The notes: generated by a model not told the origin, from the sequence alone. DNA of 32,000 nt from Bdellovibrio sp. (GCA_016187935.1 JACPIU010000005.1:64885-96884); one strand, 5' to 3'. Shown: positions 17,028 through 20,578, numbered from the stretch's first letter. Program-made: numbers and translations.

Positions 17028-17033
17028 TATAAT
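17028..17033 (+). promoter_or_regulatory. Possible sigma-70 -10 box for the cyclase/TIR operon
   Basis: A perfect TATAAT ends 8 nt upstream of the GAGGA SD (17042-17046) of ATG 17053. The -35 is poor (GTGTTT at 17-nt spacing). Confidence 0.3.
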
Positions 17034-17052
17034 GAGATCACGAGGATTTTTC

Positions 17053-18978
17053 ATGAGTTATAGGCCAAAACCGCTGCCGGTTCAACATATTGTCTTGGAG
17101 AGTGCACTGCGTGAACTGGTCGAGGATTTAGCACAGAATACTCACGAGCTGTGGTCTCGTGCGCGACTGCAGGAGGGATGGAAGTTTGGTCCCAAGAGAG
17201 ACGATACCAGAAAAGAAACGCCTTGTTTGGTTCCCTACGATGAATTGCCCGACTCTGAAAAGGAATTCGACCGTATCACTTCACAGGGGGCGGTAAGATT
17301 CATTCTCGCCAAAGGATTTATAATTCAGGCACCCAAGGTCAAAGATGTTCAAGCTATTCAAGACGCCAAAAGGCGCGCTCTTGAATTCTTAAACCGTGGC
17401 GAATGTATCAAGGCCCACGATCTAATTTTGCAATGCCAGCAGCTCGCTCCGGATGATCGTGAATTGATTCGTATGCGCGCCACGTCCCTTTCTCGTCTTG
17501 GTATGGCCAAGAGTGCCCTGCGTTTTTTTCACACCCTGCTGGAGTTTGACAGCAGTGATCGCGAAGTATGGGGCATGATAGGCCGCTGTTACCGAACACT
17601 CTATGAGCAAGAAGCCGATCCTCAAAAAAAAGTGGAGCTGTTACGGCAATCCCTCCATGGCCATGAGAAGGCCCACCAATTCGGACCGGGGCCATGGACA
17701 CTAATTAATCGTGCCACGGTTCACGCACTATTAGGCGAGTCCCAGAAGGCCCAGGTTTTGGTCGAGGAAATTCTTGCATTGACCATCGATATTGTGCCGG
17801 CCGAAGATCGCGACTGGATTGACGCCACCTGTGGCGTTGCCTGCATGCTTAAGGGCGATATTTCTGAGACCAAAAAATATTTACAACGACATGTACAACA
17901 AATGCGTCCTCTGTGGGGAATGATCGCCTCCACCCGCCGTAATATCCTATTACTATCACCGTTGATCGGCCGTAGCTTCAGCGAGACGGAATTCCATCAG
18001 GTGCTCGATCTATTAAAAGTTCCAAGCATTAAATGTATTTTCCCCACCTCGAAATTCTCTCCCGACATGATACAGGAAGGAGATGTGGGGGTGTGCGTTC
18101 CCTATCCTCATGTCTGCAGTGAGTTTGCTCAGCATATTTTGCATCGAGAGGGACAGTTATATCTGGTGCTTCCCTGTCGTGCCGACAGCTTCAAGCTGAT
18201 GATGGCCCAGGAACATCCGCAGGAATATCAGGCATGGGAGGGTATTTTCAACCAGTTGTTGGCCAGGGCCAAGGAAGTGATCGCGGTGGGGGATGATTTT
18301 CATATTTTGGATCACAGCATCCGCGACTACCTGGAACGCGTGGCCTTTGGTCTATCCGTTCTCAAGTCTATGGAGATATCTTCCACAGTTGAAATTTTGG
18401 GTCATCCTTCCATGGGCGGCAATTATCAACGATCGAAAATCATGGCGTTGGTGTTTGGAGATGCTGTCAATTTCAGCAAGCTACAGCATGAACACTTTCC
18501 TATTTTTGAACAGGAAGTGTGGGGACTGGTGCATGAGATCTTGAAAGAAATGCATATTACTCCGGCCTTGGCCAATACCTGGGGCGATGGTTTGTACATG
18601 GTGCTGGATGATCTGGCCCAGGCCGCGCGCTTTTCTCTGGAGTTGGCCAGTCGTATGGCCACCACGGATTGGAAGGCCAAGGGCCTACCTAAGGATATTG
18701 GTCTGCGGGTTGGAATTCATGCCGGCCCAGTGTTCGAAAGTATCAACCCTTTGACCAAAAACGTAAGCTATATCGGCGCCAGTGTCTGTCGGGCGGCACG
18801 TATCGAGCCGATCACACCTCCGGGACAGGTCTTTGTATCCCAGGAGTTTGCAGCATTACTGGCCAGCGAGCACGCCAACAAATTTATCTTCAGCTATGTT
18901 GGCACTCTCTCCATGGCAAAAAATTACGGTACCTTCCCCATGTATCGCCTTGAAGAGGCAAAAGGGCTTCATGACTAA
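17053..18978 (+). CDS. RyR domain - helical (TPR-like) repeat region - class III adenylate/guanylate cyclase domain protein
   Basis: Start set at ATG 17053 with a GAGGA SD. The N-terminus matches the RyR domain pattern (LAQNTHELWSRARLQEGWKFGPKRDDTRKETPCLVPYDELPDSEKEFDR). The middle region is helical-repeat. The C-terminal cyclase motifs are ALVFGDAVNFSKL (Asp codon 18460-18462), WGDGLYMV (Asp 18586-18588), GLRVGIHAGPV and IGASVCRAARIE. Confidence 0.75.
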   Translation: MSYRPKPLPVQHIVLESALRELVEDLAQNTHELWSRARLQEGWKFGPKRDDTRKETPCLVPYDELPDSEKEFDRITSQGAVRFILAKGFIIQAPKVKDVQAIQDAKRRALEFLNRGECIKAHDLILQCQQLAPDDRELIRMRATSLSRLGMAKSALRFFHTLLEFDSSDREVWGMIGRCYRTLYEQEADPQKKVELLRQSLHGHEKAHQFGPGPWTLINRATVHALLGESQKAQVLVEEILALTIDIVPAEDRDWIDATCGVACMLKGDISETKKYLQRHVQQMRPLWGMIASTRRNILLLSPLIGRSFSETEFHQVLDLLKVPSIKCIFPTSKFSPDMIQEGDVGVCVPYPHVCSEFAQHILHREGQLYLVLPCRADSFKLMMAQEHPQEYQAWEGIFNQLLARAKEVIAVGDDFHILDHSIRDYLERVAFGLSVLKSMEISSTVEILGHPSMGGNYQRSKIMALVFGDAVNFSKLQHEHFPIFEQEVWGLVHEILKEMHITPALANTWGDGLYMVLDDLAQAARFSLELASRMATTDWKAKGLPKDIGLRVGIHAGPVFESINPLTKNVSYIGASVCRAARIEPITPPGQVFVSQEFAALLASEHANKFIFSYVGTLSMAKNYGTFPMYRLEEAKGLHD

Positions 18979-20578
18979 GGGACGGCATCAGATTTTTATC
19001 AGCTACTCCAGCAAGGATATCAAGGAATGCGAGGCAATTCGCGATGAGATCGAAAAGCATGATCTACAATGCTGGATGGCGCCTAGAGATATCCTGCCTG
19101 GTGATGTCTATGCCTCCAGCATTATCGATGCGATTGGACAGGCCAGCATCTTCTTACTTTTCGTGACCGAGCACTCCAACTCTTCCCTGCAGGTGCAAAA
19201 GGAAGTGGACCGCGCCGTTAATGCCAGGTTGAAAATCATAGGGTTTATTCTCAAACAGGTGGAGCTCAGCAAGGCCCTCAACTACTATCTGTGCGATTCG
19301 CATTGGATTGATGGCAGTTGTGATCGCAAAAAAGCAGTGAAGCTGTTGATTGAATCCATTAAGGCCCAGATCTCGGCGGTTGGTGATTTACCACCACCGT
19401 TGCCTAAAGCACCCACTGATGAGCTTATCGGTCATACTCAATGGCAGAAAAAAATTCTCATGCCGCTTTTTTTATGTGCCCTAATTTTTTGTGCTATGGG
19501 TGCCTTTTTGTTGTTGAAACCGGATGCCATAAAAAGCATTGCTGCCTTGTTGCCTAGGAAGGCCTTCCAGCTCGAAGTCAGGCCTTTGCCCACCAATGGG
19601 TTGGGTGATTGGAGCGAGCGCTTTGGCAAGCGGGTACGCTATCATTTCGAACCCGCGGCAAGATGGCTACCGCCGGCCTTTGCCCATCTTTTCACCCGCG
19701 AGGAGCTAGCACAAAAATCCATTCAGGAGCTTGATCTGCTTTATGAAGAGATTCGTGCTCGTCATGGTTATCTTTACGAAGACCCACTTTATCGTCAGCA
19801 CTTTGAATCCCAGTCCTGGTATAGGCCTCTGCAGGGCCAGTTATCCGTTCAGGAAATCAATCAGATGATCGAAGATCAGATGCCGATCGTAGACGAGGAC
19901 AACCGCGCGCTGGTGGCACGCCTGATGCATGAAAAAAATCATGAGGAATTGCTGCGGACTAGTCAATATTTCAAACAAACACACGTCAAAGTCTTTCCAT
20001 TGATATATTTTAATCTTGCAGCAGCACGCCTTACCCAAGCGCAGCGGGATCTTGAGCAACTGTCCTTTGTCCAATGCGAGGAAATGGCCATCCAACTGAT
20101 GTTTGATAAGAAGATACCGGCGGAATGGGGGCCGAAGGAGCTATCCCAGATATCTATGAATAATCCCTGGGAATGGTACAAAACTCAAACCGCTCCATTT
20201 CTGATTTACCTCTCCTTTGTCGAGGAGAGCGGTGACGGCATCAAGATTTACCATGCCGACAATCAGCAGTCTAAAGATGCCGCGGTCTTTATCCAACAGC
20301 ACTTGATGGAGAACATCGCCCAGGAACAAAATATTTATCCTTGGAAAATTGTGCTGGCCGGTGATCACCCGATTCTAAATCATAACTCTCAGGGAGTCTC
20401 GCTGTTGATCCATGTCGTGCCCTTTGAAGGCATGAATGATTTTTCTCAACTTGAAGTGGCAGGCAAACTGCTGCAAGCAACGGTGGTCGAGATGGTCTTT
20501 AAAGATTTTCAACAACGCTTGGCCAACAAAACAGACAAAATCCCCTCACAAAGAGATGCGTCTCTCCTGAGAGATTAA
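18971..20578 (+). CDS. TIR domain - transmembrane helix - YARHG domain protein
   Basis: Start set at ATG 18971, overlapping the cyclase gene by 8 nt. TIR_2-type N-terminus: HQIFISYSSKD...LQCWMAPRDILPGDVYASSIIDAIGQASIFLLFVTEHSNSSLQVQKEVDRA. TM helix ILMPLFLCALIFCAMGAFLLL at 19454-19516. YARHG motif LDLLYEEIRARHGYLYEDPLYRQHFESQSWYRP, with IRARHGY at 19751-19771. The last 200 aa or so are unassigned. Confidence 0.75.
   Translation: MTKGRHQIFISYSSKDIKECEAIRDEIEKHDLQCWMAPRDILPGDVYASSIIDAIGQASIFLLFVTEHSNSSLQVQKEVDRAVNARLKIIGFILKQVELSKALNYYLCDSHWIDGSCDRKKAVKLLIESIKAQISAVGDLPPPLPKAPTDELIGHTQWQKKILMPLFLCALIFCAMGAFLLLKPDAIKSIAALLPRKAFQLEVRPLPTNGLGDWSERFGKRVRYHFEPAARWLPPAFAHLFTREELAQKSIQELDLLYEEIRARHGYLYEDPLYRQHFESQSWYRPLQGQLSVQEINQMIEDQMPIVDEDNRALVARLMHEKNHEELLRTSQYFKQTHVKVFPLIYFNLAAARLTQAQRDLEQLSFVQCEEMAIQLMFDKKIPAEWGPKELSQISMNNPWEWYKTQTAPFLIYLSFVEESGDGIKIYHADNQQSKDAAVFIQQHLMENIAQEQNIYPWKIVLAGDHPILNHNSQGVSLLIHVVPFEGMNDFSQLEVAGKLLQATVVEMVFKDFQQRLANKTDKIPSQRDASLLRD

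Follow-up and report, generated by a model that had tools for sequence, protein, structure and literature searches.

What kind of signalling system is encoded where a gene for a nucleotidyl cyclase-like protein overlaps a gene for a TIR membrane protein? We addressed this question for two genes, hereafter gene 1 and gene 2, in a 32,000-nucleotide (nt) stretch of DNA from Bdellovibrio sp. (GCA_016187935.1 JACPIU010000005.1:64885-96884), which is referred to here as the window. A preliminary description of this locus had concluded that the pair fits no described system and had drawn an analogy to Pycsar. The analysis reported here favours another answer: with a probability of roughly 0.5, the pair may be a Thoeris-type relay in which two components pass on second messengers, running from TIR to RyR/TPR-S to cyclase. 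The pair fits the Thoeris-like logic of a TIR generator with a partner sensor-effector, of which it is a variant still uncharacterised, rather than something outside known kinds. It is set apart by a predicted cyclase output, by the RyR domain fused into gene 1 and by TIR partners that resemble receptors.

The gene pair and its encoded domains

The two genes and their features are given below by position in the window; Pfam matches to both genes were counted above the curated cut-offs.

17042-17046, + strand: GAGGA ribosome-binding site, read from the sequence, 7 nt before the gene 1 start
17053-18978, + strand: gene 1, an open reading frame (ORF) for a 641-amino-acid (aa) cytosolic protein with RyR, TPR-S, α/β and class III cyclase-like domains
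17059-17328, + strand: RyR (R12-type) domain, aa 3-92 (PF02026, E 1.9e-27)
17347-17967, + strand: TPR-S helical scaffold, aa ~99-305 (helices H99-H305 in the AlphaFold2 (AF2) model)
17419-17721, + strand: Pfam match to TPR-S, aa 123-223 (PF20308, 36.8 bits, cut-off 27.6, E 6.3e-9)
18010-18402, + strand: α/β Rossmannoid domain, aa ~320-450 (AF2 model of aa ~291-443, predicted local distance difference test score (pLDDT) 89)
18427-18918, + strand: class III nucleotidyl cyclase-like domain, aa 459-622 (PF00211, 38 bits, cut-off 21.9, E 1.6e-9)
18971-18978, + strand: 8-nt overlap ATGACTAA, read from the sequence, with gene 2 starting within the stop region of gene 1
18971-20578, + strand: gene 2, an ORF for a 535-aa single-pass membrane protein with an N-terminal TIR domain, a transmembrane helix, a YARHG domain and a C-terminal region
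18992-19318, + strand: TIR domain, aa 8-116 (TIR_2, PF13676, E 6.2e-16)
19202-19204, + strand: candidate catalytic Glu E78, inside the TIR domain
19454-19519, + strand: single transmembrane helix, aa ~162-183 (ILMPLFLCALIFCAMGAFLLL), from a Kyte-Doolittle scan, with QKK preceding it on the TIR side
19685-19834, + strand: YARHG domain, aa 239-288 (PF13308, 41.8 bits, cut-off 27, E 1.1e-10)
19835-20575, + strand: C-terminal region, aa 289-535 (~247 aa), aligned in P0001-P0006

Position 17028, previously given as the start, is not a start codon. The best start of gene 1 is ATG 17053 (other in-frame candidates, GTG 17005 and ATG 17032), since it follows the GAGGA site, the 52% identical homolog P0079 also begins with MSYRPKP, and the NCBI protein P0078 ('Bdellovibrio sp.', 641 aa), which comes from a metagenome-assembled genome (MAG) and is 100% identical to gene 1, has the corresponding length. 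Gene 2 is likewise 100% identical to an NCBI MAG protein, P0001, named 'TIR domain-containing protein [Bdellovibrio sp.]'. Gene 1 ends with TAA 18976-18978 and gene 2 begins with ATG 18971, which confirmed the 8-nt overlap reported earlier, indicating that the two genes are translationally coupled, as judged from this overlap; the homologous pair in locus L002 overlaps by 4 nt. The G+C content of the two genes (0.50 and 0.48, compared to 0.38-0.43 in their neighbours) suggests that the pair was horizontally acquired. Across window positions 17001-20000 the G+C content climbs to 0.49-0.50, with about 0.38-0.44 on both sides, and third-position GC is 0.54 compared to 0.36-0.49.

The AF2 model of gene 1 (pLDDT 84.8) contains an RyR domain, ~200 aa of paired helices, a five-stranded α/β domain and a cyclase fold, and a Kyte-Doolittle scan found no hydrophobic segments in the protein. 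The ~350 aa of helical repeats described earlier thus held for the ~200 aa of TPR-S helices, while aa ~320-450 turned out to form the five-stranded α/β domain. The earlier statement that no sensor domain is present did not stand, since gene 1 has TPR-S, RyR and a weakly SLOG-like domain. In gene 2, Pfam found no domain that binds a cyclic nucleoside monophosphate (cNMP). The RyR, cyclase, TIR_2 and YARHG domains that had been expected in profile searches all scored above the Pfam cut-offs.

The RyR and TPR-S domains are both above these cut-offs, and their predicted ligand roles are taken from the literature. A PDB profile search matched the RyR domain to RyR1-3 as well as to 3nrt, a protein of B. 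thetaiotaomicron; the domain aligned with all four RyR repeats in profile comparison, and its model superimposed on 3nrt with a TM-score of 0.86 (Foldseek). According to Lopez Rivera et al. (PMC13232231, May 2026), phage RyR-domain proteins (PF02026) either cleave the cyclic ADP-ribose (cADPR) isomer 2'/3'cADPR or bind it at nanomolar affinity. In RyDEP, a His75/Asp117 dyad cleaves this molecule, whose adenine is stacked on by Trp78 and whose phosphates are contacted by His100 (PMC13232231); comparison of residues placed H31, W34 and D73 of gene 1 at the positions of RyDEP H75, W78 and D117, with identical spacing (PMC13232231).

Within the TPR-S domain, the INAAT and W..AT motifs are near-invariant across 149 relatives. 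Burroughs and Aravind reportedly predicted in 2020 that a TPR scaffold, which ASK kinases later took up, recognises NAD+-derived signals. The Pfam name of the domain, 'TPR-Sensor', and the co-matches of PF13281 (the ASK1 TRAF-binding/TPR region) in 54/75 top matches of the family search agree with that scaffold.

The middle α/β domain is tentatively SLOG-like in its modelled fold. Its best PDB fold matches were YpsA 2nx2 (E 8.7e-3, TM-score 0.45) and DprA, which are weak (TM-scores 0.39-0.45). At the sequence level no match was obtained by Pfam (7 members) or by PDB profile search, nor with a 26-sequence profile that has the canonical motifs, and in a fold search with the whole protein, cyclase, TPR and RyR matches dominated and nothing was found on the middle domain. 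The family consensus of this domain has the Gly-rich motifs GHMIDxPxR..PRFP, SAACGxDILFLEA and LAVWDGxxGDGxGGTA.

The cyclase domain matched CyaB, RhoGC and Ma1120 with Foldseek TM-scores of 0.72-0.77, while the Pycsar uridylate cyclase 8jsz was a weaker fold match (rank 32, TMt 0.51). Residue positions were mapped onto the canonical motifs of class III cyclases. Gene 1 has the class III cyclase fold with the two metal-binding Asp residues (D470, D512), and it keeps R583 and the C-terminal Lys; across 149 relatives, conservation of the Asp pair and of the Arg exceeds 94%. The canonical transition-state Asn/Arg pair and the base-specifying residues of class III cyclases were not found: the base-specifying positions are N508 and S572, neither Lys/Asp as for ATP nor Glu/Cys as for GTP. 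At position 579, which corresponds to the catalytic Asn, 123 relatives have S in 60, N in 29, T in 12, V in 11 and C in 3. By its residues, the cyclase domain looks catalytically competent.

Gene 2 has a receptor-like layout. The best PDB match of its TIR domain is TIR-STING 6wt6. E78 was invariant in an alignment of 8 homologs and, by the S..W...E motif of TIR NADases, probably occupies the position of the NADase Glu, in agreement with the preliminary description, which had also recognised one transmembrane helix, located here at aa ~162-183. The YARHG match spans profile positions 11-60 of 85 and was accompanied by a PDB profile match to 4g2a. YARHG has been described as an extracellular domain and proposed to bind peptidoglycan (PMC3355149), and in gene 2 it is presumed to be extracytoplasmic, lying beyond the sole transmembrane helix. 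The C-terminal region, which had been estimated at ~200 unassigned residues, comprises about 247 aa, gave no Pfam or PDB match and is conserved in close homologs only. Upstream of two full-length gene 2 homologs (41-45% identity; L001, L003), the place of the cyclase protein is taken by another one (L001 5818-7902, L003 1-740). This protein of ~694 aa has no Pfam or PDB match, and comparison ruled it out as a relative of gene 1 or TPR-S. The same type of TIR receptor thus seems, from these contexts, to pair with alternative partners.

Association of gene 1 relatives with TIR genes

A word-indexed search recovered just 11 relatives of gene 1, and an exhaustive profile search with the TPR-S and middle-domain region recovered 6,776 representatives at E ≤ 1e-3 and 1,762 clusters at E ≤ 1e-30. 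TPR-S was present in 75/75 top matches, the cyclase model in 47/75 and an N-terminal RyR in 26/75. Loci were then scanned in one genome per species using a profile from a 5-sequence alignment, which added about 50 full-length relatives of gene 1 to those already known, from Acidobacteriota (many of them Pyrinomonadaceae), filamentous cyanobacteria, Bacteriovoracaceae, Chloroflexota, Verrucomicrobiota, Planctomycetota and Armatimonadota.

When six-frame ORFs were searched with a TIR hidden Markov model (HMM) built from 77 gene 2 homologs, a TIR ORF was found within 6 kb in 37/52 family loci compared to 3/27 control loci with RyR only (Fisher p = 2.9e-7). The pairing occurs in at least 8 lineages and many bacterial phyla, and in roughly two dozen loci (manual count) the TIR gene is directly adjacent on the same strand. 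Among the contexts of close homologs, TIR genes adjoin a cyclase-type gene in L002, L006, L007 and L009/L010, and L002 keeps the same gene pair at 52% (gene 1) and 38% (gene 2) identity. The neighbourhood proposed in the preliminary description was therefore recovered, with a cyclase-type gene and a TIR gene adjoining in many unrelated genomes.

The TIR partners have at least 6 architectures: TIR-transmembrane-YARHG; TIR-transmembrane with ~400 aa; TIR-WD40; triple TIR-WD40 or 3xTIR-CHASE2; 2xTIR with multiple transmembrane segments; and TIR-NB-ARC-TPR. Since these proteins are unrelated apart from TIR, TIR is the constant element of the pairing. Almost all of them have a hydrophobic segment 80-110 aa beyond the last TIR, and because of this segment they appear to share a design in which TIR lies in the cytoplasm and a membrane anchor separates it from a distal domain of sensor type. 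No cNMP-binding domain was found in any TIR partner scanned. In Pyrinomonadaceae (L016 3911-5914 and about 20 other loci), a conserved ~400-aa domain without a Pfam match lies beyond the transmembrane segment; the motifs of this Acidobacteriota domain include GWNMFPRQ and NPYTTTLALLTLLE.

The association survives domain permutation and gene fission, as indicated by the layout of a Priestia aryabhattai plasmid (L090, NZ_CP128553, 4118-12327), on which the cyclase is N-terminal to TPR-S, the reverse of the order in gene 1, RyR is a stand-alone 94-aa gene and a 743-aa TIR gene lies 1.3 kb off. Two hypothetical genes and a gene for the Pycsar effector PycTM are also present, and the other strand encodes a Band7-like protein and the 743-aa TIR protein.

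Readers of cyclic nucleotides also lie near gene 1 relatives. In a Chloroflexota MAG (L032, 1869-11858), an ABC transporter with a C-terminal cyclic nucleotide-binding domain (CNBD), a CRP-family regulator, an RyR-TPR-S-cyclase protein, a 335-aa CNBD protein and a double-TIR protein with many transmembrane segments are encoded on the same strand, so that three cNMP-binding proteins bracket the cyclase gene. An ABC-CNBD protein is also encoded beside a gene 1 relative in L033, and PycTM is in the same cluster as the relative in L090. The cNMP readers near the relatives in these three loci point to a real cyclic nucleotide as the cyclase output.

Two further contexts were observed. On a Caballeronia plasmid (L091, NZ_CP049320, 1-7627), the TPR-S-cyclase gene overlaps an upstream 463-aa gene without a Pfam match, and a TIR gene lies beside a DUF4231 gene 3.4 kb away; DUF4231 is a SLATT-type family, and this TIR/DUF4231 pair may be a separate type VII Thoeris-like pair. 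L008 (4072-7673) encodes two TPR-S proteins side by side in divergent orientation, one of which has a cyclase-type C-terminus, on a plasmid-like contig (RepA_C, ParA, resolvase and toxin-antitoxin genes) with no TIR within reach; a trio of ABC transporter, GAF and S8 peptidase genes lies upstream in L008 and also in L009.

A candidate relay, its alternatives and its surroundings

In the locus, a TIR gene with the NADase Glu (E78, by motif) lies beside an effector gene with TPR-S and RyR, domains known or predicted for ADP-ribose (ADPR)-type signals. From this make-up we infer which way the signal runs, what both messengers are and what the trigger is: the TIR would make an ADPR-type messenger, RyR and/or TPR-S would bind it, and binding would activate the cyclase. 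Gene 2 would act as a receptor, with a cytoplasmic N-terminal TIR, one transmembrane helix and an outward-facing YARHG and C-terminal domain. An envelope cue would turn on the TIR, which would convert NAD+ into an ADPR-derived messenger of the cADPR-isomer class. Gene 1 would read this messenger through TPR-S and/or its N-terminal RyR; alternatively, the RyR domain would degrade the messenger and thereby set a threshold, and from its residues it could equally be a built-in degrader of the signal or a reader of it. Reading of the messenger would activate the C-terminal class III cyclase, which would yield a cyclic nucleotide, or consume a nucleoside triphosphate, for downstream readers.

A more specific proposal is offered tentatively, namely that the pair has the topology of a Toll-like receptor, in which YARHG activates the TIR and a cADPR-type product, via RyR and/or TPR-S, gates a cyclase of unusual specificity. 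Known TIR signalling ends in a killing or arresting effector, and a cyclase output here would join NAD-derived and cyclic-nucleotide messengers. Moreover, nearly every TIR partner is a membrane protein whose sensor-type domain lies beyond the membrane, which suggests outside-in TIR signalling in bacteria.

Several observations weigh against this Thoeris-like relay. By its sequence, the window gene 1 is a divergent member of its family: the GHMID, SAACGxD and GDGxGGT motifs of the middle domain are lost by substitution and deletion, six near-invariant TPR-S positions are altered (R181, H204, L217, D254, V262, L277), the phosphate-binding His (RyDEP His100), which is His in most RyR-bearing relatives, is T56, and the catalytic Asn position of the cyclase is C579. 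Because of these changes, the protein could be partly degenerate. The fold match behind the SLOG-like assignment is weak. TIR was not seen within 6 kb in 15/52 family loci, some of which are cut by contig ends, and many of the TIR-positive loci are orthologous Pyrinomonadaceae, so that the loci are less independent than the Fisher test assumes. Among the ORFs ≥150 aa of the 32-kb window, neither a CNBD gene nor a PycTM gene was found. Finally, a census of 111 flanking ORFs found no recurrent defence genes, and the neighbours were mostly housekeeping genes, which argues against a classical defence-island system.

These surroundings lend some weight to a first alternative, which we consider possible but doubtful, that the same relay chemistry serves ordinary physiology, for example with sensing of the envelope or peptidoglycan, of prey or of neighbouring cells leading to cNMP-dependent regulation or export. 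Genes for an EngA-type GTPase and an S9 peptidase recur among the 111 flanking ORFs, in loci that are mostly Pyrinomonadaceae, consistent with synteny. The TIR partners are receptor-like, and their sensors, CHASE2 and YARHG for instance, are of an extracytoplasmic type. Relatives of gene 1 are flanked by genes for a CRP-family regulator and for CNBD-ABC transporters. In the window, the pair has genes for an M20 peptidase and for proteins with ankyrin, RCC1 or LRR repeats as its neighbours, not defence genes. However, the Pycsar membrane effector PycTM is present in L090, on a plasmid, L006 lies among Mrr, NERD and HicB genes, L008 is plasmid-like, other TIR and TPR-S pairs protect against phage, and the window pair has a foreign G+C content. 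Overall, we regard a role in physiological sensing and a role in defence as comparably likely.

It is improbable that the pair is degenerate or non-enzymatic, that is, a cyclase pseudoenzyme in complex with a TIR that serves as a protein-protein adaptor, without diffusible messengers. Such a pair would account for the Cys at the catalytic Asn position, the Asn and Ser at the base-specifying positions, and the loss of SLOG motifs and of near-invariant TPR-S residues in gene 1, and inactive cNMP cyclase domains do occur in other conflict systems (PMC7159879). However, the window copy, like >94% of relatives, retains both metal-binding Asp residues, the Arg and the C-terminal Lys, E78 of the TIR is invariant, and cNMP readers adjoin relatives of gene 1; a residue other than Asn at position 579 is moreover the norm of the family and not a decay specific to the window.

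The opposite direction, as in Pycsar or Pucsar, in which gene 1 would sense the trigger and its cyclic nucleotide would activate the TIR as an NAD+-depleting effector, draws on the adjacency of a class III-type cyclase and a TIR protein, the weak PADLOC match to PycC (E 0.007), the presence of 8jsz among the fold matches and the ability of Pucsar cGMP to switch on a TIR effector, but it was rejected as unlikely, and with it the earlier Pycsar analogy is disfavoured, because gene 2 and every scanned TIR partner are without the cNMP-binding domain that characterised effectors carry, while the partners bear sensor-type domains of their own (YARHG, WD40, CHASE2, NB-ARC-TPR), as expected of an upstream component, and gene 1 has two domains linked to NAD-derived ligands.

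As for the surroundings of the pair in the window, a promoter and terminator scan of 16600-20900 gave counts no higher than chance, and Rfam gave no match in the whole window. The 3' end of gene 2 overlaps the gene for the M20 peptidase (20546-21814, - strand) convergently by 33 nt (20546-20578). Upstream of the pair, window 1726-16850 holds a run of genes for eukaryote-like repeat proteins, which is unusual for a Bdellovibrionota MAG and reminiscent of the effector arsenals of host-associated bacteria. The run comprises the following genes.

1726-4119, - strand: subtilase
4336-6330 and 7501-9381: two LRR proteins
11251-14397: RCC1-repeat protein
14346-16850: ankyrin-repeat protein, 834 aa

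A 361-aa ORF at 9454-10539 has a weak, sub-threshold intein/Hint match (E 1.6e-4, 22 bits, cut-off 35.8). Downstream, a 219-aa ORF (21900-22559, - strand) has an N-terminal hydrophobic segment, many GLVVS(F/I)P-like repeats and no Pfam match. Window 22685-25224 contains a gene for an ECF-type sigma factor, then two overlapping ORFs without a Pfam match (23296-23781 and 23778-24515), followed by a gene for a Secretin_N-domain protein (24454-25224); this group may be a sigma/anti-sigma unit tied to a secretion component.

Comparison with known systems

The pair was not recognised as a Thoeris-like system by the PADLOC v2.0.0 defence HMM set, which gave weak sub-threshold matches to ThsB (8e-4), SAVED_TIR (2e-6) and PycC (E 0.007, 13.5 bits); no named system was thus returned, as expected beforehand. 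NCBIfam likewise gave sub-threshold matches at most to both proteins. Full-text literature searches, Burroughs & Aravind 2020 and Burroughs et al. 2015 not covered, found no description of a system of a TIR with a TPR-S-cyclase, nor of a host-encoded RyR domain in a TIR system, and the Thoeris survey tables consulted had no cyclase effector besides CBASS cyclases.

The closest likeness is to type VIII Thoeris, a validated system whose signal is canonical cADPR (Yirmiya et al., bioRxiv 10.64898/2025.12.03.692087). Its effector ThsI responds to cADPR, and the authors suggest that the TPR of ThsI, which is the TPR that Aravind and colleagues predicted for TIR-mediated signalling, perceives it (bioRxiv 10.64898/2025.12.03.692087). 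In type VIII Thoeris and in BcTir/BcTpr, a Bacillus cereus pair that protects against phage, a TIR gene adjoins a gene with the Aravind-type TPR scaffold, as is the case here. However, the output of ThsI and BcTpr is an N-terminal domain of the CMP-hydrolase/glycosidase type, whereas gene 1 has a C-terminal class III cyclase together with RyR and the α/β domain; a DrHyd-type CMP-hydrolase fused to TPR was not found, and the enzyme of gene 1 is a PF00211 domain C-terminal to TPR-S. The type VIII TIR domains are ~125 aa with no transmembrane segment mentioned in the supplement, whereas gene 2 is single-pass and receptor-like. Both of those systems are anti-phage, whereas the present pair is known from its sequence alone.

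Type I Thoeris (ThsB with the SIR2-SLOG protein ThsA) follows the same logic, in which a cADPR isomer made by a TIR reaches a Rossmannoid sensor in the partner and elicits an enzymatic output. It differs in having a SIR2 NADase output and a SLOG sensor, whereas the output here would be a cyclase and the sensor TPR-S and/or RyR. Unlike the SLOG of ThsA, the SLOG-like domain of gene 1 is weakly supported and its motifs are lost in the window copy.

Pycsar and Pucsar share with these loci a class III-fold cyclase and a TIR protein in one locus, and PycTM in L090. In Pucsar the cyclase product cGMP can activate a TIR effector, and the characterised Pycsar/Pucsar TIR effectors carry a cNMP-binding domain, which the TIR proteins here do not have. 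Neither a cNMP-binding effector nor a cyclase of the Pycsar clade was found, the PycC match being just 13.5 bits, and the cyclase here carries large N-terminal sensor domains, unlike those of Pycsar/Pucsar. The direction from TIR to cyclase is likely, and the reverse is disfavoured because the scanned TIR proteins have no CNBD.

With phage RyDEP, gene 1 shares PF02026 and, at identical spacing, the His, Trp and Asp of 2'/3'cADPR binding and cleavage, while the phosphate-binding His of RyDEP is Thr in the window gene. RyDEP is a small stand-alone viral anti-Thoeris protein, whereas the RyR domain of gene 1 belongs to a host protein that also contains TPR-S and a cyclase, and its gene is tied to that of the cell's own TIR. 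Animal ASK kinases and ryanodine receptors are relatives of the sensor domains, by the PF13281 co-matches and the RyR alignment respectively, but they are eukaryotic, their outputs are a kinase and a Ca2+ channel, and they have no established operon partner or TIR link. A fused RyR domain in a cellular protein tied to the cell's own TIR would allow a direct test of R12-type domains as cADPR receptors, with a bearing on animal RyR biology. If the more specific proposal of a pathway with Toll-like-receptor topology is correct, gene 1 would hold the first cellular, non-viral RyR repeat domain that is a receptor for TIR-made cADPR isomers, and the pair would make the connection of cADPR with the ryanodine receptor, long a matter of debate, tractable in a bacterium.

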